The notes beneath the pieces were generated by a model. That model was given only the letters and a program-made list of their open reading frames with translations, had not been told where the DNA came from and made no database searches. The position numbers and the translations under genes are program-made. This document shows positions 7,250 to 38,048 of a stretch of DNA of 64,000 nucleotides, one piece after another (the stretch's first letter is position 1; each line of letters opens with the position of its first letter). Source of the DNA: Ignavibacteriota bacterium (GTDB lineage: Bacteria > Bacteroidota > Ignavibacteria > UBA10030 > UBA6906); the NCBI GenBank assembly GCA_963702445.1, contig CAVPCZ010000012.1:193199-257198 (forward strand). The letters are read 5' to 3'.

Positions 7250-7303
7250 GGGTGGAGATCCGGGTGAAGGTCGATGCGGAAAAAGAACGGCGGCAGGCGG
7301 GGA

Positions 7304-8707: not shown

Positions 8708-8763
8708 CACATTGAATAACGTAGCGAGATTCGCGCGGAATTGCAACCCTCGCCCGTGTCGCG

Positions 8764-9731: not shown

Positions 9732-9733
9732 GA

Positions 9734-20096: not shown

Positions 20097-20350
20097 TTCA
20101 GAACCCGGACGAGATCAGGGTTATCCGTGGCTATGGCGTCCACCGGACAGTCTTCGGCCGCTTCACGCATGTACTCCTCTTCTTCCGCTGTTTGCGGCTG
20201 GCGGCTGACAAAGTACCTGTTCGACGATTTCTCAAAATCGAAATTGTCCGGCGCAATGGAGGCGCAGTAGGCGCATCCGTCGCACTCTTCGGTGGTAAAG
20301 AATTTGCCCGAGACGTTTTGCGGCAGCCGTCGTGTCGGTTCGGCGCTCAT
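20093..20350 (-). CDS. Small single-cluster ferredoxin
   Basis: CDGCAYCASIAP ... DCPVDAI pattern. The ATG at 20350 overlaps the haem-lyase stop by ATGA (the ORF-track start at 20365 is also possible). Confidence 0.6.
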   Translation of the reverse strand: MSAEPTRRLPQNVSGKFFTTEECDGCAYCASIAPDNFDFEKSSNRYFVSRQPQTAEEEEYMREAAEDCPVDAIATDNPDLVRVLK

Positions 20351-22842: not shown

Positions 22843-24246
22843 CTAGAAGCTCCGCTCGGTATTGAAGGCGTTTACTTTGCCGTTGATGTGTTTGGTCTTG
22901 TCGATGATATTGCCGGAGCCGTTGACGACTCCGGGGTGACAGTTGACGCAGCTGGTGAGCGTCGCGGATGTATGGCCGGCCGGAGGCAGGCCGTGACAGC
23001 TTCCGCATGCGCCGTCGGTGCTTCCGCCGTTCCAGGATGGTGCGAAGTTCGTCCCCGCCATCACGCTATCCGTGAAGGCGAACGAGAAGGAAGATGTGGC
23101 GCGCGAAAGACGCCAGGCCCCATGGCAGTATGTATTGCTGCACTTGAATGTTGTGGTGCCGTAGGCCGGAACCGGCAGGTAGTTCCCGCCGGTTCCGGTG
23201 GCAAGACGCGCCAGCGTATCCCGGAACACGACTTCGGCCGGCAATTGTGTGTCAACGTGCCCGGGGGGGAACGTCTGGGCGGGCACCAGATGGCATTCGG
23301 CACATTTCACGGATTTGCCCAGGTTTCCGGAGACAAGATGCTTCTGATGCGCCCCGATGGCGTGAACGACGGGCGGATTGTCCTGTGAATCCCCCAGGAC
23401 AGTCTTGGGCGGTGCGGCGGAGAGAGCATCGCCCGAGGCGGCGCGGAACTGACCGTGACACGTGTTACAGGCTTCAGGGGATTTCGGCGTGCCGCCGGCA
23501 TCGGCATGGCAGGGAACAGTGGAACAGCTCACATTCACCACCGGACCGCCGGTATACGATGCGCCGTGACAGGTTTTGCATTGCGCCAGGGGATACCCCT
23601 TACTCAGCAGATAGCCGGGATGTCCTGACGATGCCTGGAAGACGGTGTGCGGATAGGAAGCATGGCAGGTGAAGCATGATACACCGCTTGTTCCACCGGT
23701 ATAATTCTCACCATGGCACGCGGCGCATTCCGTCAGCTGCCAGTTCTTTCCTTTCAGGTAGCGGCCGTGAGACGCCGTTGATGCGGGATTGCCCCATCCG
23801 GTGCGGTGGGGATACGAAGCATGGCAGGTGTAGCAGGAAACACCGCTTGTGCCGCCCGAGAAATCCGCGCCGTGACAGGCGGCGCAATCGTCCAGCGTCC
23901 CCATGTCCAGGCGCAGGAACTTCCCATGGAACGTCGTCGCGGCTGTATCCACCCAGCCGGGTTTGTGCGGATAGGACGTGTGACAGCCGTAGCACGAAAC
24001 GCCGCTCGTGCCTCCCGAATAGGCCTTCGAATGGCACGACACGCAGTCCGTGTTCTCGTACTGCGGTCCCGACAGTACGGTGCCGTGAAAGGCCGGAGAG
24101 GCGGGATCATTCCAGCCGGTCTCATGAATGCCCTGCGGGGCCATGGGAGCGGGAAGATCTTGTTTCAGCTCGCTGCAGGCCCCGAGCAGCAATGCCGTCG
24201 TGAGCAGAGCGAACGTCGCCGGAAATCGATGAAAGTGTACGCGCAT
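22843..24246 (-). CDS. Multihaem c-type cytochrome lipoprotein, 13 haem motifs (11 CxxCH + 2 CxxxxCH)
   Basis: Lipobox ALLLGAC at residues 18-24. CxxCH x11, plus CSTVPCH (23506-23526) and CSNTYCH (23122-23142), both verified from the DNA. The C-terminal CxxxxCH...CxxCH pairing resembles the Geobacter-type C4xCH/C2xCH domain. Confidence 0.88.
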   Translation of the reverse strand: MRVHFHRFPATFALLTTALLLGACSELKQDLPAPMAPQGIHETGWNDPASPAFHGTVLSGPQYENTDCVSCHSKAYSGGTSGVSCYGCHTSYPHKPGWVDTAATTFHGKFLRLDMGTLDDCAACHGADFSGGTSGVSCYTCHASYPHRTGWGNPASTASHGRYLKGKNWQLTECAACHGENYTGGTSGVSCFTCHASYPHTVFQASSGHPGYLLSKGYPLAQCKTCHGASYTGGPVVNVSCSTVPCHADAGGTPKSPEACNTCHGQFRAASGDALSAAPPKTVLGDSQDNPPVVHAIGAHQKHLVSGNLGKSVKCAECHLVPAQTFPPGHVDTQLPAEVVFRDTLARLATGTGGNYLPVPAYGTTTFKCSNTYCHGAWRLSRATSSFSFAFTDSVMAGTNFAPSWNGGSTDGACGSCHGLPPAGHTSATLTSCVNCHPGVVNGSGNIIDKTKHINGKVNAFNTERSF

Positions 24247-24262
24247 GGGTCCTCCGCCCTCC

Positions 24263-25465
24263 TTAGCCGTGACAGTAACCGCAGAAGTTTCTTCCCTTCA
24301 CGCCATCGGGTCGGGCATTCAGGTCTGTGTGACAGTTGAAGCATGTGGCCCCGGCACTGGTATGCCAGGGTCCGTGCTCATCCTTCAAAAAAGAACCGGG
24401 ATGTGTGCGCGGGTCGGTTCCCCGTATGCCGTCGGCGTCAACATGACAGGTGACGCATACCGGATCGTTGCCCTGCGTGTCGTGGCAGCTCACACAGCTC
24501 TCGATATCGCGCCGCGCGAGGGTTGCATGGGTACCGCCGCCGCTGCCGACACCGATGGTGGCAAACCCCGCCCCCAGGTGCCAGGCCGGCGTGAACGCCT
24601 GCGAGGTGATGTTGTCGCCCGTCGCATGACATTCCGCGCAGAATTCCTGCTGCGAATGGCAGCCGTAGCAGTCGGCGCTCTTCGACTTCGCATCGATGCC
24701 ATGGGTGAACCGGTAGTTCATGTCGTGTGCGAGCTGCAGGCTCATCTGTTGCGAGCCGTTTCCCGGAAACGTCCGCGGGGTGGGATCGGCCATCAGGGCG
24801 CCCTGGCCGAACTGCGCCAGCGCGGCGGGGGCATGACACTCGGCACAGAACGTCTGTGTGTGGCAGGTGGAGCAGCTGGTTTCCAGTGCTCCGACCCGGG
24901 TCAGCTGCTTGTGCTCCTTTTTGAAGTTTCCCACCAGGTGGTCGGGTGGAACGAGCTGCACAAAGCTGGTATGACACGCCTCACACGCGTTGGTCACCTT
25001 CCGGTCGTTGTGGCAGGTGTTGCAGGTCGCCATCGAAGGCATGTGTTTCGGTGCAGCGTAATCGGCCTCTTCGAGTCCGGCATGGCAGGTCGTGCACTGG
25101 ACGTCTTTCTGTGAAACATGCCGTTCATGGGAGAAGAGCAGCTCGCGCACGGCGGGAGCGGCAGGCTGGATATTGTCGGGATCCAGATGGCAGTAGCTGC
25201 ACTGGTTGCCCAGCTGCTCCTCGTGGCAGGACTGACAGTTGTCGTGGCCCGCACGGAGATTGTCGGACGCCAGTTTGCTTGTGGCTGCCGGGTGGCAGTT
25301 TTCGCACGCCACGCCGGCGTCGGCGATATGCGTCTTGTGGGAGAACTTCAGCTGCTTGTTGTCGGCCCGGTCGGGCCACCCGTTCCGGAGGGCGGGTTTG
25401 TGGGCGACCGCGGTGATCAGCCCGGCGGCAACAATGAGCAGGAAAACCAGATAACGGCGGATCAT
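24263..25465 (-). CDS. Periplasmic 14-haem c-type cytochrome
   Basis: N-terminal signal or anchor (MIRRYLVFLLIVAAGLITAVA) and 14 CxxCH motifs in 400 aa. The start overlaps the beta-barrel stop by ATGA (25462-25465). Confidence 0.9.
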   Translation of the reverse strand: MIRRYLVFLLIVAAGLITAVAHKPALRNGWPDRADNKQLKFSHKTHIADAGVACENCHPAATSKLASDNLRAGHDNCQSCHEEQLGNQCSYCHLDPDNIQPAAPAVRELLFSHERHVSQKDVQCTTCHAGLEEADYAAPKHMPSMATCNTCHNDRKVTNACEACHTSFVQLVPPDHLVGNFKKEHKQLTRVGALETSCSTCHTQTFCAECHAPAALAQFGQGALMADPTPRTFPGNGSQQMSLQLAHDMNYRFTHGIDAKSKSADCYGCHSQQEFCAECHATGDNITSQAFTPAWHLGAGFATIGVGSGGGTHATLARRDIESCVSCHDTQGNDPVCVTCHVDADGIRGTDPRTHPGSFLKDEHGPWHTSAGATCFNCHTDLNARPDGVKGRNFCGYCHG

Positions 25466-26772
25466 TGTGCGCCCTCCCCTTTGAAGATGGACAGCCGTTG
25501 CGCGAACCAGTACATCAGCTTCACCTGCAGGCGCAGATCACGCTGGGAGATTTTGTTCGTCAACCATTGCCCCTGCACGTCGAAGGAGAACGCCTGTGTG
25601 GGGCGGACGATCGCGCCGAGCAGCACCGACAGGGCGTTATCGCGTGAGCTTTCTTTGCTCAGGCGGTAGGATGCATACGAAAGCCCGGCGGTCGGGATCA
25701 CGGTCCGGCCGAAGAACGGGTACGATCCCTGGAGGCTGACCGACTGCAATTCTCCTGCATAGCCGTCGCTGCCGGTATACGCGAGGCTGCCGTAGCCGTT
25801 GTTCACGCCCACGCTCCAGCGCGTGCTCTGCTCGTCGGTATAGCTGACGCTCGCCACCCGGGCGAAGGCGCGGAGGAGGGGGGTAAAACCGTACTCCACG
25901 CCTCCCTCGATTTCATTCACCGCATTGGCGACAAACGCCGAGAATATGGAGTTGTACGAGAGTCGCGGCGCGCGGTGAATGTAGTCCGCGGTCAGGGACA
26001 GCGCCTCGGTCACGTACACCCGCGCACCGCCCTGTGCCCGTGCGGTGCGGGATCCGGCGAAGTCATAATCGTACCTTCCGTACGCGGAGAAGCGGCCGGC
26101 ATATTCGTACCGTGCTTCCGCACTGGCCACTTCCTGGGCCGGCGAATCGTTTGCGATATAGTACGACACCGGGGCAAACGAGGTATCGCGCGCGCGGACG
26201 GTCCAGTACGGGTCTCGCTCCTCGTGCCGGTTCATGTAGCTCAGGCCGATGCGTGCGCCCGGCAGGAGTGTTGTCACCACCTGCCCGCCGAAGTGGTAGT
26301 TGTCGTGCAGGTTTTCCCGGACACCCGTGAAGTCCGGGCTGACCGTTGAGCCGGCAAAACCCGTCACCGTCACCTTCTGCTGGAGAAATCGTGCGCGGGC
26401 GAGAAATCCGTCTATCGTCCCGACTCCTGCGCCTGCATACACCGCCTGCCGTCCGACGTTCAGGTCAAGTACCTTGCCGATGTTGGCCCAGGTCAGGTAG
26501 AGGTTATAGAAGCGCACGCGCCCGACGTCGCCGAAGTCCCCGGCCAGATTGGCCGCCCCCTGGATGAAGGTGTTCACGGAAACGTCGCCCTGCGTCATGG
26601 AAAGCTGGATATTCTGGAAGGCGCGAATGCGCTGGTGGGACACGCCCACCGTATCGAACTGTTCCCAGCCGTAGAAGGATGTCGCCAGACGTCCCGTCAC
26701 CAGCTGCGCGGGCGCGCCGGCGACGCAGACCAGAATCAGCAGGGCGAGGGGGAGAGAGCGTGGTGTCTTCAT
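25462..26772 (-). CDS. Predicted outer-membrane beta-barrel (porin-like) protein of a porin-cytochrome module
   Basis: Signal peptide MKTPRSLPLALLILVCVAGAPAQ from ATG 26772. The remaining ~410 aa show alternating hydrophobic/polar strands rich in Y/G/S/T/R with no Cys and no haem motif, and an aromatic-rich C-terminal region (LMYWF). Barrel call by composition and pattern only. Confidence 0.65.
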   Translation of the reverse strand: MKTPRSLPLALLILVCVAGAPAQLVTGRLATSFYGWEQFDTVGVSHQRIRAFQNIQLSMTQGDVSVNTFIQGAANLAGDFGDVGRVRFYNLYLTWANIGKVLDLNVGRQAVYAGAGVGTIDGFLARARFLQQKVTVTGFAGSTVSPDFTGVRENLHDNYHFGGQVVTTLLPGARIGLSYMNRHEERDPYWTVRARDTSFAPVSYYIANDSPAQEVASAEARYEYAGRFSAYGRYDYDFAGSRTARAQGGARVYVTEALSLTADYIHRAPRLSYNSIFSAFVANAVNEIEGGVEYGFTPLLRAFARVASVSYTDEQSTRWSVGVNNGYGSLAYTGSDGYAGELQSVSLQGSYPFFGRTVIPTAGLSYASYRLSKESSRDNALSVLLGAIVRPTQAFSFDVQGQWLTNKISQRDLRLQVKLMYWFAQRLSIFKGEGAQ

Positions 26773-26816
26773 ACACAGTTCCCTTTTGTTGCCGCCTCTT
26801 CGAAAGGTGTACCCGT

Positions 26817-28316
26817 TCAGAGACCGGAATGGCATTCGACGCAGTTGGTCTCCTGCCATGCATCGCCGATATCCTCGGGGTGCTGGAACGGAAGTCCGGC
26901 CACGGTGAGCGTCTGCGGCACGGGATCCGTCCCCTGATACAGAATCGTATGACAGCTGTTACAGTCCTTGCTGATGCGCTTCCCGTCCGCGCTCACATGT
27001 TTCCCGTCATGGCAGCGAAAACAGCCGAGGTCTGTCATATGGCCGATATGGCTCGGGTAGGCGCTCCAGCGTACATTCATGAGGGGAAAGAAGTTCTTCC
27101 GGTATTGCGCAACAAGCTCCTGTCCGGCCGCGAGAATGCGCGCTCCTTCGGTGGCGGCCACCTGCGGATACTCGCGTTCATAGTAGGCGCGCAGCAGGTG
27201 CGGTATGCTGTCCGCCGCTTCCCCGGCTGTGGTATAGGGACGTTTCAGCAGATCCATTGCTGTTTCACGGACACGCGGCAGCGAGGGGCTTATCGTTCCG
27301 CGCGTCAGGCTCCGGTCCACGATGCGGGCGGGGGGAAGATAAATGTGGGATGGGCGGTTGTGGCAATCCATGCAATCCATGCGCGACCACTCCCCACTCC
27401 GCAGGCCGGCGGTGTCCGCCGGCATTTCTTCGGCGGCATACTCGGTGACCGTACCCGTGCGTTGATCTCTGACGCGAACCAGGGGGATCGACTGACGGAG
27501 GGAATCCACGGCAACGTACGTCACTTCATTGGCGGGGTTCACGTGCCAGTGGATGCCGTTGGCGGGTCCCCGTTCTTCATTCCCGCCGCCGATTTTCATC
27601 AGCAGCGCGAGAGTCCACCGGGTGTTCGCTTCATCGGACTTGAAATAGGTGTTGACGTATTTCTTTTCCCCGGCGAAATGGGACGGCCAGTGGCACTGCT
27701 CACAGGTTTCCCGGGCGGGGCGCAGGTTCTTGATGGGGGTAGGGATCGGCCGGGGGTACACGTTGGCAAGCACGGCGTACACCTGGTACGCCCCGGAAAG
27801 TTTGGACTTGACATACCATCCGGCACCCGAGCCGACGTGGCAGTCAACACACTTGACCCGTGCGTGCGGCGAGTTCAGGTAGGCCGTATACTCCGGTTCC
27901 ATAACATCATGACAGGTTGCGCCGCAGAAGGGCACCGATTCCGTCCACTCAAACGTCCGGTAACTCCCGTACGCCGTGAAGAGCAGGACAACGGCCGTCA
28001 CCCCGGCGAAGAGCGCAAGTGCGGACCGGTGATGCGGCACGCCGAGGTCGATCGTGAGGACCTTTTTACTCGCCGGCCGGCCGGCACGCAGACGCCGCCG
28101 CTCCCGTACCGCTCCCACAGGGATCATCAGCAGCCCCAGCAGCAACGGCACCGGCAGGGCGATATACGAGATGATCCCGATGTACGCCGGCGCGTTTTCC
28201 TGCACCATCTCCACCATGGTGAGAAACAGAATCGTCAGAAGGCACGCGCTCGCCAGGGCTGCCCCCACAATACTTATGGGGTTGTAGAAAATCTCCGGGA
28301 GCTTTCTTTTTTTCAT
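26817..28316 (-). CDS. Membrane-anchored heptahaem c-type cytochrome (NapC/NirT-like region; ImcH-like architecture)
   Basis: Three N-terminal hydrophobic segments are followed by FCGATCHDVM (CxxxCH, 27909-27926, checked in the DNA) and six CxxCH motifs. The 499-aa length and layout match the description of the Geobacter inner-membrane quinol oxidase ImcH. Confidence 0.75.
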   Translation of the reverse strand: MKKRKLPEIFYNPISIVGAALASACLLTILFLTMVEMVQENAPAYIGIISYIALPVPLLLGLLMIPVGAVRERRRLRAGRPASKKVLTIDLGVPHHRSALALFAGVTAVVLLFTAYGSYRTFEWTESVPFCGATCHDVMEPEYTAYLNSPHARVKCVDCHVGSGAGWYVKSKLSGAYQVYAVLANVYPRPIPTPIKNLRPARETCEQCHWPSHFAGEKKYVNTYFKSDEANTRWTLALLMKIGGGNEERGPANGIHWHVNPANEVTYVAVDSLRQSIPLVRVRDQRTGTVTEYAAEEMPADTAGLRSGEWSRMDCMDCHNRPSHIYLPPARIVDRSLTRGTISPSLPRVRETAMDLLKRPYTTAGEAADSIPHLLRAYYEREYPQVAATEGARILAAGQELVAQYRKNFFPLMNVRWSAYPSHIGHMTDLGCFRCHDGKHVSADGKRISKDCNSCHTILYQGTDPVPQTLTVAGLPFQHPEDIGDAWQETNCVECHSGL

Positions 28317-28443: not shown

Positions 28444-28944
28444 TCATCGTACTTGAAACCCTTTGAACGTCGGGCTTCCGGCGTTGTGGCAGGTTTCGCA
28501 CGTCTTCTTTGCCGCATCACCTGTCACGAGACCGGCCTCGACGGCCTTCGCCTTGTTTTCGGCCTTCGTATGCAGCGTCTTGAAGCCGGATGCCGCACCG
28601 TGGCACGCTTCGCAGGTGACACCTTCCTTCATGTCGAAGGTCTTCTCTACATTGGCGGCGGTTCCACCACCGGCCACATGGCATTTCAGGCACTCGGGGC
28701 TTTCGGCCGGCGGTTTGGCAAGACCCTTTTCCTTGCCGATCTTCTTGGCCGCTTCGCCCTCCAGGGTCTTGTACGCCCCGGCGTGCGCGGTTTTGGCCCA
28801 GATCGTGAACGCCTCTCCCTTGTCCTTCGCCTTGTGACACATGGCGCAGGTTTTGGTGCCCACGAATTTGTTCTCCGCCACCGCTGTGCCACCGCACAAC
28901 ATCAGCGCAACGGCGAACAGAAGGACCACACAGGCTGTTTTCAT
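28444..28944 (-). CDS. Small periplasmic tetrahaem cytochrome c
   Basis: Signal peptide MKTACVVLLFAVALMLCGGTAVA and four CxxCH motifs (CAMCH, CLKCH, CEACH, CETCH) in 166 aa. GGGAGGAAG precedes the ATG. Confidence 0.88.
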   Translation of the reverse strand: MKTACVVLLFAVALMLCGGTAVAENKFVGTKTCAMCHKAKDKGEAFTIWAKTAHAGAYKTLEGEAAKKIGKEKGLAKPPAESPECLKCHVAGGGTAANVEKTFDMKEGVTCEACHGAASGFKTLHTKAENKAKAVEAGLVTGDAAKKTCETCHNAGSPTFKGFQVR

Positions 28945-29008: not shown

Positions 29009-29863
29009 CTACTGGTATGCAAACACCATTGCATAGATGATCCATACGACGATGCTGAAGCCGGTACCCAGGGCCGTCCATGCGAACACCCGGATTGCCC
29101 TGATGACGATCGCCGGATAGGGTTCCGCCAGGCGCGACTCCAGTTCGCCGGATGCCGCCACCGATGCGTATTCGGCGGGTTTGTCCATCTTCAACTCCTC
29201 CACCGGCATCCGTCCGGTGAAGATGACCATATCCATCGGAAATTTTTCCGGGCGCAGGTGGGTGTTGAAAAAGTGGATGGTGAAGATGAACCCGGTGGCC
29301 AGCAATGCCTCGTCACTGTGTATGATCGTCGCCACGTTGATCATCCAGCCCGGGAACAGCTGCGTGAAGAATTCAGGGAACCAGAGAGTGAAGCCGGTCG
29401 ACCCGATCACCACCATCCCCCAGAAGACCGCGAAATAGTCGAACTTCTCCCAGTAGGTCCACCGGCCGAATTCCGGGCGGGGCCCCATACCCAGAAACCA
29501 TTTCACGGATGCAACGAACTGGTGCAGATCGGTTTTCGTCGGCAGCATGGTGTCGGGACCGAACAGGAGACCCTTCCAGCCGCCGATTCCCCGCCGCTTC
29601 CGCCGGAACAGGTCCACGATGTGGACCAGGAACACGCCCACCATGATGGTGGCCGCAAACCGGTGGAAATAACCGGCGGTCTCATACCCGCCGAAGAGGT
29701 GGGAGAGAAACGACGCCCAGCCGGTATAGGAAAACTTCAGAGTCATTCCCGTCAGTGCCAGGCTCAAAAAACTGACGATCATCAGGATATGCAGGATCCG
29801 GTTGAGCCGTGTAAACCGGACGTACTGGCGTTCGTTGCTGTTATCCACTGTGCTGTGCTCCAT
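29009..29863 (-). CDS. Cytochrome b subunit (HydC/FdnI-like, polytopic)
   Basis: YVRFTRLNRILHILMIVSFLSLALTGMTL aligns with YLRMTLGERIQHGTLLVSFITLVLTGFAL in the C-terminal domain of the 31858-33993 protein. It has conserved His in TM helices and 4-5 TM segments. Start uncertain: ATG 29863 or GTG 29929, both overlapping the upstream gene. Confidence 0.78.
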   Translation of the reverse strand: MEHSTVDNSNERQYVRFTRLNRILHILMIVSFLSLALTGMTLKFSYTGWASFLSHLFGGYETAGYFHRFAATIMVGVFLVHIVDLFRRKRRGIGGWKGLLFGPDTMLPTKTDLHQFVASVKWFLGMGPRPEFGRWTYWEKFDYFAVFWGMVVIGSTGFTLWFPEFFTQLFPGWMINVATIIHSDEALLATGFIFTIHFFNTHLRPEKFPMDMVIFTGRMPVEELKMDKPAEYASVAASGELESRLAEPYPAIVIRAIRVFAWTALGTGFSIVVWIIYAMVFAYQ

Positions 29864-31853
29864 CTTCCTGGGTTGTTCCTTCCGCCGGGCCCGGAGGCGG
29901 TGGTGTCTGCTCCGCACGTCTGCGTTCACGCTGCCAGCGCAGGGCCCTGGGCAGCCAGAGCAACGTGTGAATGCCGCTCACCACAAATGTGACGACCAGC
30001 AAACCGGTCATTCCCCAGAAGGTCCAGAAGAGCCAGGGATATTTTGCCGGATCATGATGCGTCGCATGGGTAAGGTAGCCCGCAAAGCGCCGGTTTGCCC
30101 CCGGATGGCACTGCTGGCATGTAGCGACAACATTCTCGCGGCTGAGATGTGACCGCGGGTCGGCGATGGGCAGGATGTCATGTGCGCCGTGACAGCTGTA
30201 GCATTGTGCCGTTTTGGTGTAGCCGAGTTGCGACACTTTTCCGTGATACGTGTCGAAGTACGTCTTCGCAATCGCCTCGTGGCATCGGCCGCACTGGTTC
30301 ATAATCGTGAGCTTGAACCCCTCCTCGTCGGCGCGGCGGATCGTATGGGCGCTGTGGCAGTCGTCGCACACCGGCAGCTGCTTCGTGGTCTTCCCGATCT
30401 GGGAAACGTGCACGCTGCGGGCAAATTGTTCCTCCACCCCGTGATGGCACCGTCCGCACGTGGAGGGGACATTGCGCGGATTGATGCTGGAGAGTGTATC
30501 GGCGCGCGGAAGAACCCTGTGCGCCGTGTGGCAACTCGTGCATGTCGCCGTCACCGTTAATCCACCGCGGGACAGCCCCTTGCCGTGGGTGCTTTCACGG
30601 TAATGCTCGACAATCTGATGTTGATCGCCTGTGTACCGCACGGCCGCTTTCTGGCCTTCACGATGGCAACGCGCACAGAGGGCCGGAATATTGGTGGGAA
30701 ACGTGGAGGAAGCGGGCTGGGTCTTGCCGAGAATGCCGTGCGTGCCGTGGCATTCCTTGCATGTCGGCGCATTGGGATCGTTCCGCACGAAGAGCTGTCC
30801 GTGCGTGCTCTGGAGGTATTCCCGGCCGACTTCCGCATGACAGGATGCGCAATCGACACGCTGGGTGATGGTCTGGCAGGGCCGCTCCTTCGCCGCATTC
30901 ACACCGGCATGGCACTGGCTGCAGGAGATCTTTGCGTGCCGTGAGCCCGCCAGATGTCCGGGTGTCACGGCCATGGACCGGCCGTCCCTGGCCGAAACAA
31001 GATCCGCCCTGGCGTGGCACCGCAGGCAATCCCGGTCGGCCATTCCCTGGTCGTAGAATACCTTTCGTACCTTGTGCGGCTGGTGACAATCCACGCATGC
31101 CGGCAGCATATGGGCCTCTTTTTCCCACAGCTCCCCCTTGATCACCTTTCTATGCACACTCTCGATCTGTGCGTGACATTTTGTGCATGTTGCCGCGATG
31201 TTCCTGCGGGCGATGGATGACGCCGGATCCGTGTGCGGAAGAATGGAGTGGGCGGTGTGGCAGGATGCGCAGGTTGCCGACACGATGAGACCTTTTTTCA
31301 GCAGGCCTTCGCCGTGGATGCTCTCGGAGAAATTCTCCAGGATATGATCCTGATGGATCGTCCGCTGCCGGGCGACGGGTGCGCCTTCCTGGTGGCATTT
31401 GCCGCAGAGGAACGGCACCTGCAGGGGCGACACCGGAGAACGCGCATCGGTGACTTTTGCGATGGCGTGGTTTCCGTGGCAATCGGCGCAACGGGGCGCG
31501 AGCGGATCCCCCCGCCCGGCGGCCTTCCCGTGCAGCGAACGGGTGTGCAGTGCGGACTCCGTGCCATGACAATCGGCGCACACCGCAGGTGCAAGGTCTT
31601 CTTCGTGCGGCAATTCCTTCCCCGCAAGATCGGCGTGACAAGCGACGCAGGGAACATCCGCATGGACCGACCCGGCGAATTTCTTCTGGTCCACGAACAT
31701 CGGCACCGTTTTTCCGCGCTTCGTCCCCGTCAGCGCCCTGTCCTCGTGGCAGGCGAGGCAATCGGTGGACTCCTGGGCCCTCGCCCTCCCCGCACAGATC
31801 AGTGCGGCAGCGGCGAGAATCAGGATCCTTGAAAACGCACGGCGGGCGGTCAT
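29841..31853 (-). CDS. 19-haem c-type cytochrome with signal peptide and one C-terminal TM anchor
   Basis: Signal peptide MTARRAFSRILILAAAALICAGRARAQ from ATG 31853, 19 CxxCH motifs, and a C-terminal helix YPWLFWTFWGMTGLLVVTFVVSGIHTLLWL followed by a basic tail. Confidence 0.88.
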   Translation of the reverse strand: MTARRAFSRILILAAAALICAGRARAQESTDCLACHEDRALTGTKRGKTVPMFVDQKKFAGSVHADVPCVACHADLAGKELPHEEDLAPAVCADCHGTESALHTRSLHGKAAGRGDPLAPRCADCHGNHAIAKVTDARSPVSPLQVPFLCGKCHQEGAPVARQRTIHQDHILENFSESIHGEGLLKKGLIVSATCASCHTAHSILPHTDPASSIARRNIAATCTKCHAQIESVHRKVIKGELWEKEAHMLPACVDCHQPHKVRKVFYDQGMADRDCLRCHARADLVSARDGRSMAVTPGHLAGSRHAKISCSQCHAGVNAAKERPCQTITQRVDCASCHAEVGREYLQSTHGQLFVRNDPNAPTCKECHGTHGILGKTQPASSTFPTNIPALCARCHREGQKAAVRYTGDQHQIVEHYRESTHGKGLSRGGLTVTATCTSCHTAHRVLPRADTLSSINPRNVPSTCGRCHHGVEEQFARSVHVSQIGKTTKQLPVCDDCHSAHTIRRADEEGFKLTIMNQCGRCHEAIAKTYFDTYHGKVSQLGYTKTAQCYSCHGAHDILPIADPRSHLSRENVVATCQQCHPGANRRFAGYLTHATHHDPAKYPWLFWTFWGMTGLLVVTFVVSGIHTLLWLPRALRWQRERRRAEQTPPPPGPAEGTTQEDGAQHSG

Positions 31854-31857
31854 GTGC

Positions 31858-33993
31858 TTACACCTTCTCCTCTTTGGGTTCTTCAGAATGCTGCCGGCGT
31901 CTGTACGTCTCCAGCTCAAGAGGATGTTCCTCCTCCATCTCTTCTTCCGTCAGCGTACCCTTCCAGAACGCCAGGTTGATCGGGTAGGTATCGGGGTTGA
32001 AGATCACAAAATAGAAATGCCAGACGATGATGGCGAGTGTGGCGAGCCAGGCTTCATAATAGTGCACCGTACGTGCAACATCCCACCAGAGTTTCGTGAG
32101 AAGGCCCAGGAAGATGTTGTCGAACCAGAGAATGACCCCCGTCAGACCCATAACACCCGTTCCCCAGACCAGCGCCCAGTACTCGCTCTTTTCTATGTAG
32201 CTGAAACGGCCGAATTTGGGTTTGTCCGGTGAGATGCCGAAGTTGTACTTCAGGACATTCAGCGCGTCAAACAGATCCTGCCGCCGGGGCAGAAGGTCCC
32301 GGAGCAGTTCTTTGCCGCGGGGGACAAAGAAGAGATACCAGAGGTGGTAGAGACTCGCGGCAACCATGGCCACGGCGGCGATACGGTGCAGGATGCCCCG
32401 CAGTTCAAACATCCACGGACTGACACTGCGTATCGGCGCCACCCACCAGGCATCCGGATACCGGAGGGCGAACCCCGTCAGGACGAGCGTGATAAAACTG
32501 ACGAGCAGTGTACCGTGCTGGATCCGTTCGCCGAGGGTCATGCGGAGATAGAGCCGGTGTGCGGTGTGTTTGCGGGGCAGTTCCCCCCGGCGGTACTGGA
32601 GCTGCCGCCGGGACTTCTTGACAAAGTCCAGCAGATTATGGACAAACATGCCGCCGATCAGCACCACAATCAATACGATATATCCGTTTGAAACGAAATA
32701 TAGCACGCCGTCATGTCCGGATGTGGCGATGACGTGCACCGAACCACGCGTGAAATTCGTGTTCGCGCCGGGATGGCAGGTCCCGCACGTCCTGGTCAGG
32801 TTGTCGGGGTGAATGCGCGAAGAGGGATCCGTTGACGGTTTGATATCATGCACGCCATGGCAGCTTGCACAGTTGGCGACCTCCACCGATCCTGCACGCT
32901 GGGCAAGACCGTGGAAGCTGTCCTCAAAACTCTGGAAGCGGTCACCCGCCAACCCGTACTTTTGCGTCAGCTTAACGGAGCCATGACAGGGAGAGCACAC
33001 CTGCGAGGAGACGTTTGCCGCCGCGACCGGTGAACGGGCGTCTTGCGGCGAAAGAATATTGTGTTCACCGTGACAGTCCGTGCAGGTGGGCGATGCCGTT
33101 ACGCCTCCGGCGAGCGCCTGGCCATGAATGCTTCCGGCGTATTGTGCGCGCGTTTCGCCGTGGCATTTCCCACAGGTACCGGCGATGTTCCTCTTGGCGA
33201 CGGAGGAGGTCGGGTTCGACCCCTTCTTCATGGTGTGGCTGCCGTGACAATCCGTGCAGGCGGCCGCGGAATCGTTGCCCGCCTTGACGGCCTGCCCGTG
33301 CACGCTCTTTTCGTAGCTGGAGACGAAGCCCGCGGAAGGACCGACCCGTTCGCGCACTTCGGGTTTGTCCAGGTGGCAGCTCAGGCACATTCTGGCCTGG
33401 TGTCCGTGGGCCGTGGTGGAACTGCTGTCCCGGGCGGACTGTACTGCATGCTCGCCGTGACAGTCGATGCAGCTGGGCGCACCTTTGACCCCCCGGACGA
33501 GCGCAAGACCGTGGTCAGACTGAAGGAACCGGACGTTGATATCTCCGTGGCATTTTGCACAAATGCCCTCGGCAAACGCAGCCCGGTGCACCGGCTCCTG
33601 GTCCGTCACCCTTTTGACGGAATGCGCCGTGTGACAATCCGCGCACGAGGCGGCGGGACGGTTTCCTTTGACGCTCCGCCCGTGCACGCTCTTTGCAAAA
33701 TCGCTGAACTGATCACCCTCGTGACAGTTCAGGCATTTCACCGGAGTGATCTTCGCCTTATGAGGAAGTTCGGAAGGTTTGAACCCTTCATGACATCCCA
33801 CGCAGCCCAGCGCACTGTGGGCTGAGGAGGCGAACCCTTTGCCTTCGACAAACAGGGAGATCGTCCTCCCCTTCTTCGTCATCGACAAGGAGGCGTCGCT
33901 GTGGCACATGAGGCAATCTTCATCAGATTGCGCCGGCACAAAGGGGGGAAACAGCAATCCCCCCAGTATCAGGGTCATGACGTGTTTCAGCAC
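31858..33993 (-). CDS. Fusion of a 13-haem periplasmic c-type cytochrome with a HydC/FdnI-like cytochrome b membrane domain (CbcL-like)
   Basis: 13 CxxCH motifs are followed by about five TM helices with conserved His. Start taken at GTG 33993 (GGAGAGAAGC upstream, signal peptide LKHVMTLILGGLLFPPFVPAQS); ATG 33978 is possible. ATG 34146 lies upstream of the predicted promoter, so I reject it. Confidence 0.85.
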   Translation of the reverse strand: MLKHVMTLILGGLLFPPFVPAQSDEDCLMCHSDASLSMTKKGRTISLFVEGKGFASSAHSALGCVGCHEGFKPSELPHKAKITPVKCLNCHEGDQFSDFAKSVHGRSVKGNRPAASCADCHTAHSVKRVTDQEPVHRAAFAEGICAKCHGDINVRFLQSDHGLALVRGVKGAPSCIDCHGEHAVQSARDSSSTTAHGHQARMCLSCHLDKPEVRERVGPSAGFVSSYEKSVHGQAVKAGNDSAAACTDCHGSHTMKKGSNPTSSVAKRNIAGTCGKCHGETRAQYAGSIHGQALAGGVTASPTCTDCHGEHNILSPQDARSPVAAANVSSQVCSPCHGSVKLTQKYGLAGDRFQSFEDSFHGLAQRAGSVEVANCASCHGVHDIKPSTDPSSRIHPDNLTRTCGTCHPGANTNFTRGSVHVIATSGHDGVLYFVSNGYIVLIVVLIGGMFVHNLLDFVKKSRRQLQYRRGELPRKHTAHRLYLRMTLGERIQHGTLLVSFITLVLTGFALRYPDAWWVAPIRSVSPWMFELRGILHRIAAVAMVAASLYHLWYLFFVPRGKELLRDLLPRRQDLFDALNVLKYNFGISPDKPKFGRFSYIEKSEYWALVWGTGVMGLTGVILWFDNIFLGLLTKLWWDVARTVHYYEAWLATLAIIVWHFYFVIFNPDTYPINLAFWKGTLTEEEMEEEHPLELETYRRRQHSEEPKEEKV

Positions 33994-34119
33994 GCTTCTC
34001 TCCGGAATCAGACTACCAATGGATATAAGGGGGTCAATCAACATGCCAAGGTTCGATCGTTGAAATTGTTGAAATTTGCCACATCTTCGATCGACACTCA
34101 CTGTCTTTTTTCCCAAAAA

Positions 34120-34136
34120 TGCGATATTGGTGCCGG
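34120..34136 (-). promoter_or_regulatory. Sigma-54-type -24/-12 promoter candidate upstream of the CbcL-like gene
   Basis: The minus strand reads CCGGCACCAATATCGCA, with GG-N10-GC spacing exact (GGCAC ... TCGCA against the consensus TGGCACG-N4-TTGCW). It lies 38 nt after the receiver-gene stop. Confidence 0.45.
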
Positions 34137-34173
34137 AGATTTGCACACCTGGGAAAAGGGTGTCGGGGTGGGA

Positions 34174-34656
34174 TTAGGAAAGGCCTGCGAGGAGATCTTC
34201 CACCCTTTTCGAGATTTGTGCGATCTCAAAGGGCTTATAAAAGACGGAATCTACATGCTCACGGATGGCCCGGTCGAGATTCACCTCCCTGGAATTATAG
34301 ACATACAGGAGGATAATCGGCAGTGTGTGGTTGGCCCCCCGCAACCCATCCAGCCGCTCGATGAGCTTCTCCGAGGGAACCGCATCCACCATGACAAGGT
34401 TTGCGGAATAGTCCGCCGCAAGGCGGTCGAGCATTCCCAGATTCGTTGTCGTGATGACATTATACCTGTCCTGAAACAGCATGGAGAGACTGAAGCAGAA
34501 GTTCAGGTCAGGGCTGTACAGCAGGATCGTCTTCTTGTTTTCACCGACATCCGTATCGGGTGCCCGTGCGTCCTTCCGGTGTTCGGCTTCGCCGTGGTGT
34601 GTTTTCACCGTATATCCTCGGTTCGTGTCACCGCAGATGGAGTTCCTTTTCGACAT
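34174..34656 (-). CDS. Single-domain receiver (CheY-like) protein with a degenerate acidic pocket
   Basis: KKTILLYSPD ... ANLVMVDA ... PIILLYVY ... YKPF follows the REC beta1/beta3/beta4/beta5 pattern, but SPD replaces DD and Tyr replaces the beta4 Ser/Thr. Alternative GTG start at 34608 (GAGGA 6 nt upstream) would remove the 29-nt overlap with uspA. Confidence 0.6.
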   Translation of the reverse strand: MSKRNSICGDTNRGYTVKTHHGEAEHRKDARAPDTDVGENKKTILLYSPDLNFCFSLSMLFQDRYNVITTTNLGMLDRLAADYSANLVMVDAVPSEKLIERLDGLRGANHTLPIILLYVYNSREVNLDRAIREHVDSVFYKPFEIAQISKRVEDLLAGLS

Positions 34657-35104
34657 CCTCTTTTTGAAGGATGTTTTCGCGGAACGGGTGCGGCTTGACG
34701 GTCAACACGGGGATTCCGGAAGATCGGACGATCCGTTCGGCGACGCTGCCCAGAAGCATGTGGCGCAACCCCGTCCGGCCATGCGTGGCAATCACAATCA
34801 GATCGATTCCCTCCTGCTCGGCGAACCGGCGGATCTCCTCCGCGGCTTCCCCTTTTTTCACGACCAGTGCAATACGTGTTTCCGCCGGCACATGGGCATG
34901 CGCGAATTCTTCGAGACTTCTTCTTGCCTCTTCCTCATTCCTCGGATGACCCTCTCTTCCGAGGAACCCTTCCCGGCCATCGACCACATGAAGCAGGAAC
35001 AGGCGGGATGTATACAGGGTGCCGAAGGACGTGGCGTACTCCACGGCTGCCAGCGAGAAGTCAGAAAGGTCGGTGGTGACGAGTATTTTCTTCAGGAAGA
35101 CCAT
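34628..35104 (-). CDS. Universal stress protein (UspA family)
   Basis: KKILVTTDLSDFS ... LFLLHVV ... IDLIVIATHGRTGLRHMLLGSVAERIVRSSGIPVLTV (ATP-binding G-2x-G-9x-G(S/T) type motif). Confidence 0.88.
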   Translation of the reverse strand: MVFLKKILVTTDLSDFSLAAVEYATSFGTLYTSRLFLLHVVDGREGFLGREGHPRNEEEARRSLEEFAHAHVPAETRIALVVKKGEAAEEIRRFAEQEGIDLIVIATHGRTGLRHMLLGSVAERIVRSSGIPVLTVKPHPFRENILQKEDVEKELHLR

Positions 35105-35137
35105 CGTTATGACTCCCGTTGTCCTTACGGGAGTTTT

Positions 35138-35152
35138 TCAAGAGTTGTGCCA
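35138..35152 (-). promoter_or_regulatory. Sigma-54-type -24/-12 promoter candidate upstream of uspA
   Basis: The minus strand reads TGGCACAACTCTTGA: TGGCAC, correct spacing, and a -12 of TTGA as at 22617-22631. It lies ~35 nt upstream of the uspA ATG, with GGGAG as a possible SD. Confidence 0.5.
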
Positions 35153-35232
35153 ACAACGTGGGGGGGGTGCCGGGGCGGAGAGGCCGAAAAATCCCCGTTT
35201 TTGGCTGAAGAAGGGTACTCCCGGCACCCGGG

Positions 35233-35250
35233 TTTCCGAATTGTGGGAAA
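35233..35250. promoter_or_regulatory. Inverted repeat TTTCC-N8-GGAAA, candidate enhancer (UAS) for the adjacent sigma-54 activator
   Basis: tttcc gaattgtg ggaaa, centred ~91 bp upstream of the -24 GG at 35150-35151 and 17 nt downstream of the activator gene stop. Matches the repeat at 22711-22728. Confidence 0.45.
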
Positions 35251-35266
35251 GCAGGCTATGAAATTC

Positions 35267-36631
35267 CTAACCCTGCGAAGGGATATTCAGCTCTTCGATC
35301 TTCCGGTAGAGGGATGAGAGGCTGATACGCAGGGCCTTGGCGGTCAACTCCTTGTTGTACTGGTTGGACCGGAGGACGTGACTGATATACTGCCGCTCGA
35401 ATTCATCCACCGCGTCTTTCATCGACCGGCGCGCATCGAATGCATAAACCGCATCGGTGCGCTGATCGAACAGCGTCGGCAGCTCTCTCTTGGTCAGGAT
35501 AGTCCCCTCCGAAAAGATCACCGCCCGTTCGATGACGTTTTCCAACTCCCGGATCTCACCCTTCCAGGTGTGCGCCATCAGGCATTTCATGACCTCGTTG
35601 TCCACGCCGCGGACATCCTTGTTCATTTCCTTGGCATGCTTTGCCACGAAATGATTCACGAGCATCGGAATATCATCGACACGTTCGGAGAGAGAGGGGA
35701 GCGTCAGCTCGACGATATTCAACCGGTAGAACAGATCCTCCCGGTAGCGGCCCTCTTCCACTTCCTTTGCGAGGTTCTTGTTTGTGGATGCGATAATCCG
35801 CACATCCACGGACATGGGCATTGAGGTGCCGACGGGGGTAATCTCTTTCAGTTCAATCGCCCTCAACAACTTCACCTGCAAGTGAAGGGGGATTTCGCTC
35901 ACCTCATCGAGGAAGAGACTCCCGCCGTCCGCGGCCTTGAAGAACCCCTCCTTGTCCATGGAGGCACCGGTGAAGGCACCGCGTTTATGCCCGAACAGTT
36001 CGCTCTCGAACAGATTTTCCACGATCGCGCCGCAGTTGATCGGGACAAACGCCCGGCCGGCACGATGGCTGCTGAAGTGGATCGCCCGGGCGACCAGTTC
36101 CTTCCCCGTCCCGCTTTTCCCGTTGATAAGCACTGTTCCGTCGGTGACCGCCACCTTTTTGATGGTATCGAACACCCGCTGCATGGCCGGACTCTGTCCG
36201 ACGATCTCGTCGAAGTTGTACTGCCGGTGCAGCTCACCCCGCAACAGCCGGTTTTCCAGACTCACGCGCCGGGTCGCCAGGAGGCGGTTCACCTTCACGA
36301 GCAGTTCATCGAACTCGACCGGTTTGAGGATGTAGTCGACGGCACCCTTGCGCAGTGCGGCGATTGCGGTGTCGATGGACCCGTATGCCGTGATGATCAT
36401 CACCAGCGTTTCGGGGCTAACGGCGGCGACCTGTTCCAGCAGCTCGATCCCTTTCATCTCGGGCATCTCGAGATCCGTGATCACCAGATCGAAGGACTGC
36501 TCCCGGATCAGGTCGAGGGCGAGCTTTCCGTTTGCCGCTTCGCGGACCGTGAAACCCTCTTTGGTCAGGACGAAGGAGAGGGATTCGCGAATGATCTCTT
36601 CATCATCCACGATCAGAATCGTATCAGCCAT
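35267..36631 (-). CDS. Sigma-54-dependent response regulator (NtrC family: REC + AAA+ + Fis-type HTH)
   Basis: REC: ILIVDDEE ... DLVITDLEMPEMKG. AAA+: INGKSGTGKE, ESELFGHKRGAFTGA (GAFTGA loop), and an RxDLYYRL-like EDLFYRLN. C-terminal HTH: NKELTAKALRISLSSLYRKI. The ATG at 36631 follows the kinase stop. Confidence 0.92.
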   Translation of the reverse strand: MADTILIVDDEEIIRESLSFVLTKEGFTVREAANGKLALDLIREQSFDLVITDLEMPEMKGIELLEQVAAVSPETLVMIITAYGSIDTAIAALRKGAVDYILKPVEFDELLVKVNRLLATRRVSLENRLLRGELHRQYNFDEIVGQSPAMQRVFDTIKKVAVTDGTVLINGKSGTGKELVARAIHFSSHRAGRAFVPINCGAIVENLFESELFGHKRGAFTGASMDKEGFFKAADGGSLFLDEVSEIPLHLQVKLLRAIELKEITPVGTSMPMSVDVRIIASTNKNLAKEVEEGRYREDLFYRLNIVELTLPSLSERVDDIPMLVNHFVAKHAKEMNKDVRGVDNEVMKCLMAHTWKGEIRELENVIERAVIFSEGTILTKRELPTLFDQRTDAVYAFDARRSMKDAVDEFERQYISHVLRSNQYNKELTAKALRISLSSLYRKIEELNIPSQG

Positions 36632-38048
36632 GCCGGTATTCCTTGGGATTGAGGGGGAGGGTGACGCAGAAGGAGGTTCCTTTCCCCCGCTCGCTGCGCA
36701 CGGTGATGTCACCGCGGAAACTCCGGACAATGCCGTAACTCACCCAGAGCCCCAGCCCGGTTCCCTCCCCGACGCGTTTTGTCGTGAAAAACGGCTCAAA
36801 CACTTTCGCCAGATGTTCGCTGGTGATGCCGCTGCCGTCATCGGTAATGCGGACCCGGATCCACTCATCATCACGTTCGAAGTCGGTCGTGATCGTTCCG
36901 CGCTTCCCCTGCAGCGCATCGACCGCATTCAGAAGAATGTTGATAAACACCTGGGCGATCTGATCGGGGACGAGGGAAAGGAGAGGAATCTGGTGCCGCA
37001 CGTGGGTATAGAAGGTCACCTCTTTCGCTTTCTTGCCCATCTTCACGATCTCGACGGAATCCGTCAGCAGTTTGACGATGTCCGTGGGCTGGATCTGGTA
37101 GTTGGAGGGCCGGGAAAAATCCACCAGATCACGGATGATCTTGGTGATCCTGTGCACCTGGGACTGGACCAGTCCGAGTTTGTCGCGCGCGAACTCGTCG
37201 TTGATCGTGCGTTGCAGCACCTGCACGATGGAAGAGATGGACGTAAGCGGGTTTCCCACTTCGTGGGCGATGCCCGCGGCGAGGGTCCCGATGCTCTCCA
37301 TCTTCTGGGAATGCATCAGCTGCTGTTCCAGGGCCTTTTGCTCGGTCACGTCGCGGTGTGAACCCAGATACCCCACCACCCGGCCGTCGCCTTCGATGAT
37401 CGGGGAGATGAGCAGCTGCGTATACAGGGGCTGGCCGTCCTTCCGGCGGTTTTCGATTTCGCCGTTCCAGACCTTCCCCGCGCTGATGGTGGACCAGACA
37501 CGCTCCCAGAACTCCTTCGCGTATTTCTTGCTGGATATGACGCTCGGATTGTTCCCGATCAGCTCTTCTTTCGCGTATCCGGTTGCGCGCTCGAACGCGG
37601 GATTGACATAAATCATCCGTCCCATCGCGTCGGTGATTTGAATCGGATTCACCGTGAAGTGCACCACGTTGGAAAACCGGAGGAGGTCCAGCTCTTTCTG
37701 TTTGGATTCAGAAATATCCCTTGCGGTGATGAACACCACCGTCCGGCCGTTTTCCTCGATCCGGCGGATGAACAGGAGTGCGTCCACCGGGTTTCCGGCG
37801 GACTGACGGAAACGCACTTCGCCTCCGGTGAAGCCGTTGCCGGAGGTGACGGATGAGAAGGCGGGGCGTGGGGAATCGGAGGTCAGCAGGGATGAAAACG
37901 GAATGGTCCCGTTAAGGACGACCGGAAGGCCGGTTACTTCCCGCGCCCTGCTGTTGCAGTCGATGAGCTTGAGGTCCTCGGACACTACGAAACACATGTC
38001 GGGGACCACATCCAACACCCGCTGGAGTATATTGAGAGGAACAGGCAT
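36624..38048 (-). CDS. Cytoplasmic PAS-domain sensor histidine kinase
   Basis: No TM segment and two PAS-like regions (one with the typical MIYVNPAFERATGYAKEELIG). H-box AAGIAHEVGNPL, N-box NILLNAVDA, G-boxes DDGSGI and GTGLGL. Confidence 0.9.
   Translation of the reverse strand: MPVPLNILQRVLDVVPDMCFVVSEDLKLIDCNSRAREVTGLPVVLNGTIPFSSLLTSDSPRPAFSSVTSGNGFTGGEVRFRQSAGNPVDALLFIRRIEENGRTVVFITARDISESKQKELDLLRFSNVVHFTVNPIQITDAMGRMIYVNPAFERATGYAKEELIGNNPSVISSKKYAKEFWERVWSTISAGKVWNGEIENRRKDGQPLYTQLLISPIIEGDGRVVGYLGSHRDVTEQKALEQQLMHSQKMESIGTLAAGIAHEVGNPLTSISSIVQVLQRTINDEFARDKLGLVQSQVHRITKIIRDLVDFSRPSNYQIQPTDIVKLLTDSVEIVKMGKKAKEVTFYTHVRHQIPLLSLVPDQIAQVFINILLNAVDALQGKRGTITTDFERDDEWIRVRITDDGSGITSEHLAKVFEPFFTTKRVGEGTGLGLWVSYGIVRSFRGDITVRSERGKGTSFCVTLPLNPKEYRHG

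Follow-up and report, generated by a model that had tools for sequence, protein, structure and literature searches.

Inner-membrane quinol oxidases belong to the parts of extracellular electron transfer that are less well characterised, and their genetics comes mainly from Geobacter and Shewanella. In Geobacter, the cytochrome CbcL is needed for acceptors below about -0.1 V and is inactivated at higher potential. Here we describe a locus within a stretch of 64,000 nucleotides from an Ignavibacteriota bacterium (GenBank assembly GCA_963702445.1, contig CAVPCZ010000012.1, positions 193,199 to 257,198 of the forward strand; hereafter the window), in which two CbcL-like units stand next to each other. 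One is the product of a single gene, A, which encodes a fused 13-haem cytochrome, and the other is encoded by two genes, B for a 19-haem cytochrome c and C for a separate cytochrome b. We consider it probable that the locus holds two anciently diverged bc cytochromes of the CbcL/MtoC/MtrH class, of which A is intact and B/C naturally split, and that both are exits for quinol.

Motif maps of CbcL/MtoC/MtrH homologues have been published in Table S2 of Zhong and Shi 2018 (PMC6295460). As tabulated there, CbcL of Geobacter (GSU0274) has 619 amino acids (aa), CxxCH haem motifs at positions 34, 57, 82, 105, 129, 158, 186, 229 and 257, and six helices, while the homologues range from 3 to 23 haem motifs, with 11-haem forms also listed. 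Also in this table are two 19-motif proteins from Ignavibacteria, one of 952 and one of 944 aa, in which the motif spacing equals that of the B protein described here. CbcL and ImcH homologues, including the fused 19-haem form, are thus already on record for Ignavibacteria in that paper, as are porin-cytochrome (Pcc) clusters in two others (PMC4245776, PMC7399161). A further system of Geobacter, cbcBA, is under BccR/sigma-54 control.

Results

All features of the window given below lie on its minus strand. Gene A (31858..33993) encodes a fused bc-type cytochrome of 711 aa, in which a signal peptide is followed by 13 CxxCH motifs, an anchor helix (transmembrane helix 1, TM1) and a four-helix dihaem b domain of the FdnI type. 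Gene B (29841..31853) starts 4 nucleotides (nt) past the stop codon of A and encodes a 19-haem c-type cytochrome of 670 aa, composed of a signal peptide, exactly 19 CxxCH motifs (counted in 29841-31853/31919), a single C-terminal anchor helix and an Arg-rich tail. Gene C (29009..29863) encodes a stand-alone dihaem cytochrome b of 284 aa, with no CxxCH motif and a match to PF01292 (E-value 2e-10). On the minus strand, the open reading frames (ORFs) and the exact motif counts agree with an earlier note on this DNA, which had described one fused protein of 13 haems plus cytochrome b and one split pair, 19 haems and then cytochrome b.

The membrane domain of A comprises residues 428-711 (31861..32712), and the PF01292 (Ni_hydr_CYTB) match covers residues 535-717 in the numbering of the long ORF (E-value 4.4e-13). 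According to the hydropathy scan, A has five membrane helices and lacks TM6, C has five that correspond to TM2-TM6 of CbcL, and B and C together have six, one plus five. The start of A was placed at the GTG at 33993, with the ATG at 33978 as an alternative. A start at 34146, an ORF extension that would cross a conserved promoter-like element, was rejected, and so were the ORF extensions starting at 31919 for B and at 29929 for C. Within B, residues 52-280 and 294-525 are two copies of an 8-haem unit (40% identity, E-value 5e-52), and by motif spacing it is because of this duplication that B has 19 haems where related proteins have 11. Haem-number differences reflect modular repeats. Internal 4-haem repeats are also present in A.

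In regard to the relationship between the two units, the earlier note had matched the C-terminal part of A with C, and the ends of the two haem domains with each other up to the following membrane helix, by eye. Formal BLASTP alignment gave 34% identity over 251 aa for the membrane part of A against C (E-value 3e-38) and 30% identity over 460 aa for the haem domains of A and B (E-value 3e-52), the latter alignment spanning the CHPGAN...H motif and extending into the anchor helix. When C was compared with FdnI of Escherichia coli (1KQF_C), residues H25, H67, H182 and H197, the ligand candidates of C, corresponded to FdnI His18, His57, His155 and His169, in an alignment of marginal similarity (E-value about 2e-3). 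These four histidines are conserved in 87-88 of the 88 full-coverage family representatives. In A, His18 and His57 of FdnI were matched directly, and His155 and His169 by way of the alignment with C, which gives H493, H536, H644 and H659 as the equivalents. Since the b domains are significantly similar and the ligand histidines are conserved in the families of both A and C, neither of the two outcomes that the earlier note had named as fatal to its proposal, missing similarity or missing haem ligands, was obtained.

A four-way alignment of A, the tail of B joined to C, a fused Ignavibacteria protein and CbcL of Geomonas contains five invariant helix histidines, one each in TM1, TM2 and TM3 and two in TM5. 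The first of them is contributed by the C-terminal helix of B, KYPWLFWTFWGMTGLLVVTFVVSGIHTLLWLPR (29946..30044), which is the counterpart of TM1 of CbcL and bears His629 (codon 29967-29969); the segment ...MTGLLVVTFVVSGIHTLLWLPR of B aligns to ...MTGLLIGTFTVFWIHTLLWMIR of CbcL helix 1, with the His invariant. The same five-His pattern was reported for CbcL by Joshi et al. (CbcBA preprint), who speculated that it could allow alternative ligation of the b haems. As the B/C cut falls after helix 1, the fifth invariant His, that of TM1, is located on the cytochrome c subunit B.

The fold of A was also approached through an AlphaFold2 model (mean predicted local distance difference test score, pLDDT, of 70, lower in the membrane part). 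The only significant Protein Data Bank match of this model found by Foldseek was FdnI 1KQF_C (E-value 3.2e-5, target-normalised template modelling score 0.71), so that the membrane domain of A is predicted to have the FdnI fold.

The orthologue of Geomonas propionica was used as the CbcL reference in place of GSU0274, to which its nine CxxCH positions are identical. CbcL of Trichlorobacter thiogenes served as the second Geobacteraceae reference. C is 47.7% identical to Geomonas propionica CbcL over 281 aa (E-value 3e-84), and the haem domain of B with its anchor is 30% identical to it (E-value 4e-37). A is colinear with the same protein (28% over 569 aa, E-value 1e-61), its membrane domain alone reaching 27% identity (E-value 3e-25). 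The designation of the units as two CbcL-like modules, made in the earlier note, is therefore borne out for both. Among the NCBIfam matches there was no CbcL- or ImcH-specific model, and every match stayed below its curated cut-off. Furthermore, species-representative genomes were scanned with an alignment of CbcL-like representatives, which yielded 80 loci. Geobacteraceae loci, G. sulfurreducens not being among them, and a contig of Ignavibacteria bacterium GWF2_33_9 (L079) were recovered.

The GWF2_33_9 contig carries a fused protein of 952 aa which shows what the B/C pair derives from. Residues 23-645 of B correspond to residues 47-670 of this protein with 53% identity, and residues 2-280 of C to residues 675-951 with 58% identity. 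B plus C are colinear with it and therefore represent that protein cut in two, the break being located between its residues 670 and 675. The closest homologues of B form 120 clusters of 68-93% identity from independent NCBI, ENA, JGI and Logan assemblies. All 120 carry 19 CxxCH motifs, and 119 of them are 646-715 aa long and without PF01292. The median tail is 37 residues, counted from an H.LLW motif that 106 of the 120 possess. The sole fused protein of the set is P0292 (949 aa; 8001-10850 of locus L082), whose locus has the same operon and in which the two parts are joined in frame by the short linker ...RKERETPPEGLTVETPDKGEQRQYLRF....

When the haem domains were placed in a neighbour-joining tree, the more distant 19-haem proteins, five in number and without exception fused, came out at the base, these outgroups including proteins of a Chlorobiota metagenome-assembled genome (MAG; L077), of Ignavibacteria bacterium GWF2_33_9 and of a Hydrogenedentota MAG. 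The split sequences form one clade, in which P0292 is nested deeply. With 119 of the 120 closest homologues split and the distant relatives fused, the split is therefore a derived gene fission. The simplest reading of the tree would be one fission, followed by a secondary refusion in P0292, although it is possible that the fusion in P0292 is an assembly error. The b-domain tree places C with the fused 19-haem proteins. Other branches of the family in this tree mix stand-alone b proteins with fused relatives, which suggests that the fusion state could be labile in general; some of these proteins may be gene fragments.

The junction between B and C, as computed from gene coordinates, takes several forms. 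In the window it is an overlap of 23 nt (29841..29863) between the stop of B and the start of C, with C in the +1 frame. Overlaps in the +1 frame are also present in L001 (20 nt), L085 (17 nt), L086 (35 nt) and L087 (8 nt), while in L083 and L084 B ends at a single TAA codon and C, which shares its frame, begins after a gap of 24 nt, and in L082 the two genes are fused. This variety over independent assemblies excludes an artefact. The junction lies in the linker between TM1 and TM2, which is non-conserved and positively charged and, by the positive-inside rule, would therefore be cytoplasmic. Judged by their predicted topology, B and C can each be inserted into the membrane alone, B as a Sec-exported protein with a stop-transfer anchor and C as an N-in polytopic protein. 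By analogy with the anchor helix of FdnH on FdnI, they would then have to reassemble in the membrane. Programmed frameshifting into a B-C fusion was considered and rejected: there is no recognisable slippery site and C has its own ATG. Frameshifting is also disfavoured by L083 and L084, where both genes share the frame with the TAA between them.

A presents a different history. In the neighbour-joining tree of b domains, those of the A type stand on a long branch as a clade of their own, separate from about 90 CbcL-type representatives. Seven histidines of A, namely H452 (TM1), H493 (TM2), H536 and H550 (TM3), H644 and H659 (TM5) and H690 (tail), are conserved in 122 of 122 A-type family sequences; invariant H550 and H690 are, together with the missing TM6, the features that A-type proteins have of their own. 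The number of haems is 12-13 in 121 of the 122 sequences. The distant locus L077 has, in this order, a 16-haem A-type gene, one for a fused 19-haem protein and an ImcH-like gene. An A-type gene and a 19-haem gene are thus paired even where the latter is fused, so the tandem arrangement is older than the fission and did not arise by recent duplication. Sequence comparison therefore makes A a distinct, older paralogous clade. The A-type protein of L077 (600-3065, 821 aa) is 33% identical to A, and with its 16 motifs the haem number varies within the A-type subfamily.

The trees and alignments modify two statements of the earlier note. It had described the modules as differing in haem count and fusion state, which holds for 13 versus 19 haems and for fused versus split, but B/C is a fission of a catalogued fused 19-haem homologue and not an independent split design. 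It had also called the two units tandem paralogues; they are paralogous, yet old, with A in a more divergent clade that has no helix 6. The comparison with CbcL homologues proposed there was done by neighbour-joining and separated the two, C falling with the fused 19-haem proteins and A outside them.

Two putative regulatory elements accompany the genes. A sigma-54-like -24/-12 element, TTGGCATGTTGATTGA (34034..34049), is located about 40 nt upstream of the start of A, and a second one, TTGGCACAACTCTTGAA (35137..35153), upstream of a Usp-family gene. Both were obtained from the alignment of five orthologous intergenic regions. The core of the former, TGGCATG-N3-ATTGA, is invariant in the five loci while the flanking intergenic DNA is divergent, and the core of the latter is likewise invariant in all five with diverging flanks. 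Both TTGGCATGTTGATTGA and TTGGCACAACTCTTGAA are candidate sigma-54 promoters, which would parallel the BccR/sigma-54 control of Geobacter cbcBA. A match of the consensus scan at 34120-34135 was rejected as a promoter, as it is not conserved, and a scan for terminators and sigma-70 promoters was uninformative. A near-palindromic block, TTCCCACAATTCGGAA (35234-35249), stands just downstream of the sigma-54 regulator gene and is conserved in 5 of the 5 aligned loci. With its position about 80 nt upstream of the Usp element, it is a candidate activator binding site.

Upstream of A lie the candidate regulators of the operon, a PAS histidine kinase (36624-38048) and an NtrC-type sigma-54 response regulator (35267-36730), both assigned by Pfam. 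Between these regulators and A are the Usp-family protein (34628-35104) and a small receiver-like protein (34174-34656) without a Pfam match. The latter has a weak match to an OmpR receiver (E-value 1e-4) and resembles a stand-alone, possibly degenerate, receiver domain. Downstream of C, a c554-like tetrahaem periplasmic cytochrome (28444..28944; PF13435, E-value 8e-17) is a candidate periplasmic electron acceptor. It is followed by an ImcH-like inner-membrane cytochrome (26817..28316) of 499 aa, with three N-terminal helices near residues 14, 52 and 99 and a NapC/NirT/NrfH-like module, the NrfH/NapC match covering residues 100-210. Its haem motifs, at 131 (CxxxCH), 156, 205, 315, 432, 452 and 492, are six CxxCH and one CxxxCH. 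The motif and helix positions agree with those tabulated for the Ignavibacteriales ImcH homologue PIU45462.1 (PMC6295460 Table S3), in line with the earlier assignment of this gene as ImcH-like.

Further downstream, a putative porin-cytochrome module (22843..26859) consists of a beta-barrel candidate and two cytochromes. The barrel candidate (25462-26859) matches Porin_O_P with an E-value of 0.004. The first cytochrome (24263-25465) is a 14-haem periplasmic protein of 400 aa, a format equal to that of IALB_1838. The second (22843-24246) is an 11-haem lipoprotein cytochrome with a lipoprotein-type signal (LLLGAC). It has two additional motifs, CSTVPCH and CSNTYCH, that match the CxxxxCH...CxxCH domain of Geobacter, and may therefore bind 13 haems. 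Directly downstream of the cytochrome cluster (19023-22581) are a CcmF-like gene (744 aa), a small 4Fe-4S ferredoxin gene and a nitroreductase-like gene. L001, L082, L085 and L087 have the CcmF-like gene in the syntenic position, which suggests that it could encode a dedicated haem lyase.

The gene order A-B-C was found in seven related loci (L001 and L082-L087, with B and C fused in L082), and the ImcH-like gene follows in all seven, in L086 as a weak match cut by the end of the locus. The c554-like gene is likewise present in 7 of 7, after C or upstream of A. The sigma-54 regulator occurs in every related locus but L087, where there is none within the locus, and the kinase in five (L001, L082, L083, L084 and L086). 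In L086 the kinase is cut by the locus end, while L085 has the regulator only. In L001, L082, L083 and L084 the kinase-regulator pair is positioned alike and the Usp and receiver-like genes are syntenic. Porin-cytochrome genes are found in the window, L001 and L082. In L083 (17496-20487), L084 (17506-20497), L085 (10550-13590) and L087 (10501-13498), the ImcH-like gene is instead followed by Rieske and cytochrome b genes (bc1/b6f type) and a gene for a multihaem protein of about 490 aa. This Rieske/cytochrome b unit would be a fourth quinol-oxidising unit of the block. In L086 (8876-12521), the C orthologue is separated from the ImcH-like gene by genes for the beta and alpha subunits of an electron transfer flavoprotein and for an acyl-CoA dehydrogenase, a hint that fatty-acid oxidation might be connected with this quinone-linked block.

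Another CbcL-class form was encountered in other Ignavibacteria MAGs. In L045 and L048, ORFs 5359-7257 and 5359-7251 encode a 9-haem CbcL with a motif spacing close to that of Geobacter, 44.7-48% identical to C and with other neighbouring genes. CbcL-class proteins of the phylum therefore fall into at least three subtypes.

Discussion

According to the reading which we find probable, menaquinol would be oxidised at the b domain of each unit, and the electrons would cross the two b haems to the periplasmic c-haem chain of that unit. From there they could pass to the c554-like tetrahaem carrier, the porin-cytochrome module and an extracellular acceptor. The ImcH-like protein would constitute a third parallel exit from the quinone pool, and the genes would be expressed jointly from sigma-54-type promoters under the PAS kinase and the NtrC-type regulator. 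That A, B/C and the ImcH-like protein may serve different acceptor potentials is only an analogy.

Several points weigh against this picture. The case is one of sequence comparison, in an organism known just from metagenomes, and sequence does not reveal which way the electrons flow, by oxidation of quinol or by reduction of quinone. In the membrane domain of A, the pLDDT is just about 40-75, and the distal His pair is 15 residues apart, compared with 14 in FdnI. The assignment of the beta barrel is weak. As the Rieske/cytochrome b unit takes the place of the porin-cytochrome genes in four of the related loci, the link to an outer-membrane conduit is not universal. With respect to regulation, the sigma-54-like elements read TTGA where the consensus is TTGC, and a scan of the window for the sigma-54 consensus, with two mismatches allowed, was not above chance (23 found, 29 expected). 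Finally, the trees were built by neighbour-joining and carry no bootstrap support.

The structure of the locus could also be explained in other ways. The B/C split might be an assembly or sequencing frameshift, or the mark of a pseudogene, the true gene being a single fused 19-haem one. A single-base change in the 23-nt overlap would join the frames, and one close relative, P0292 in L082, is indeed fused. Nevertheless, 119 of the 120 homologue clusters stop about 37 residues past the anchor helix and have no PF01292, the junction varies among lineages (+1 overlaps of 8-35 nt, or TAA with a 24-nt gap) and yet remains split, and C has its own ATG in every case, all of which makes such an error extremely unlikely. 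Alternatively, A and B/C could be the products of a recent tandem duplication with redundant function, being adjacent on one strand, only 4 nt apart and alike in overall architecture. The identity of just 30-34%, the separate long-branch clade of the A-type b domains, the absence of TM6 together with the invariant H550 and H690 of A, and the pair already present in the distant L077, where the A-type protein is 33% identical, leave very little probability for this explanation, and two anciently diverged units are the better account of the tandem.

It is more difficult to weigh the function of the units. They could work in reverse or in opposite directions, one oxidising quinol and the other reducing quinone, which would serve electron uptake such as Fe(II) oxidation, or bidirectional exchange. 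The tabulated CbcL/MtoC/MtrH homologues do occur in Fe(III) reducers and Fe(II) oxidisers alike (PMC6295460), which also counts against quinol oxidation being taken for granted, and as eight loci have kept both divergent paralogues, the roles of the two are probably not redundant. However, ImcH homologues, whose gene shares the operon here, are reported in that source only from Fe(III) reducers, the cultivated Ignavibacteria are described as iron, arsenic and nitrate reducers, and no sequence feature indicates a direction; we regard reverse flow as unlikely. Another proposal is that A, B/C and the ImcH-like protein depend on one another, as parts of a single supercomplex or of a serial chain. 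It could account for the strict gene order, for the tight or overlapping A-B and B-C junctions and for the common promoter-like element upstream in five loci. Still, each unit has a complete set of b-haem ligands and a haem chain of its own, the Geobacter homologues work independently, and in L079 neither an A-type nor an ImcH-like gene was found beside the fused 19-haem gene within the 13.5 kb covered. An obligate partnership thus appears quite improbable, and parallel quinol exits remain the preferred reading.

The regulation of these exits leads to a further idea. The A, B/C and ImcH-like genes are apparently co-transcribed, and any switching among them would therefore have to act post-transcriptionally. 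Likewise, ImcH and CbcL of Geobacter are expressed constitutively, and a post-transcriptional division between them has been proposed. The fixed, co-transcribed three-way block could be a redox-potential gearbox gated after transcription, and the split could mean that the TM1 His acts in trans. We hold this idea to be rather doubtful, although, if true, the natural split would be a ready-made test of the five-His switching model proposed for CbcL.

The locus is of wider interest for several reasons. A widespread uncultured lineage retains two divergent CbcL-class units and an ImcH-like protein as a conserved block, apparently under sigma-54 control. The class tolerates a cut exactly between the anchor helix TM1 and the b core of four helices, by which a candidate ligand His is moved to another polypeptide, and the split forms and their re-fused relative are natural split/fused pairs for studying communication between the b and c domains. 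There is also a consequence for annotation, as the split forms are annotated 'hypothetical protein' and 'formate dehydrogenase cytochrome b subunit', and searches for fused CbcL are likely to miss or mis-score them. In a limited, not exhaustive, literature search we found no description of a clade-wide fission of 19-haem CbcL at the TM1/TM2 loop, of a five-helix 13-haem A-type subfamily, or of a conserved block of A, B, C and ImcH-like genes under a sigma-54-type regulator, and term searches found no mention of two CbcL-type genes upstream of ImcH/Pcc genes.

In comparison with known systems, the units described here are most like CbcL (GSU0274) and its Desulfuromonadales orthologues. They share the signal peptide, the N-terminal multihaem c domain, the anchor helix and the FdnI/HydC-type dihaem b domain, the five helix histidines are conserved, B and C together have the same six helices, and C is 47-48% identical to the b domains of the Geomonas and Trichlorobacter proteins. 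In contrast, there are 13 or 19 haems instead of 9, B/C is distributed over two polypeptides, and A has five helices and a b domain just 27-29% identical to that of CbcL. Moreover, the genes here are united with an ImcH-like gene in one sigma-54-type operon, whereas cbcL of Geobacter is separate and constitutively expressed.

The fused 19-haem homologues (GWF2_33_9 OGU58019.1, Caldithrix abyssi Cabys_319 and Bacteroidetes HGW-4) have the 19-motif spacing of B as tabulated in Table S2 (PMC6295460), and the GWF2_33_9 protein has the same helix pattern as B plus C. They differ in being single polypeptides of 913-952 aa, while the protein here is cut after TM1. For the remaining genes, the ImcH-like neighbour is likened to ImcH (GSU3259) by the published Ignavibacteriales motif map, and the 14-haem cytochrome of 400 aa shares its format with IALB_1838 of the Ignavibacterium album Pcc cluster (IALB_1838-1840; PMC4245776).

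B/C is also reminiscent of CbcBA of G. sulfurreducens (GSU0593-0594), with its separate b subunit, its c subunit with a His-bearing C-terminal anchor helix and an adjoining sigma-54-dependent regulator. On the other hand, CbcA has 7 haems against 19 here, and C is of the CbcL type, whereas CbcB is reported to have no homology to the b domain of CbcL; the two are set apart here by this description. A CbcB lineage for C is indirectly unlikely, given that C is 48% identical to CbcL, and the resemblance to CbcBA is convergent, having arisen from fission.

In formate dehydrogenase-N, a single anchor helix is supplied by the periplasmic electron-transfer subunit FdnH. The E. coli enzyme (1KQF) has the same four-helix dihaem b fold and equivalent four ligands. 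Its periplasmic partner is an Fe-S/molybdopterin enzyme and not, as here, a multihaem cytochrome c, and the systems also differ in direction, which in the Ignavibacteriota locus is presumed to be that of quinol oxidation.

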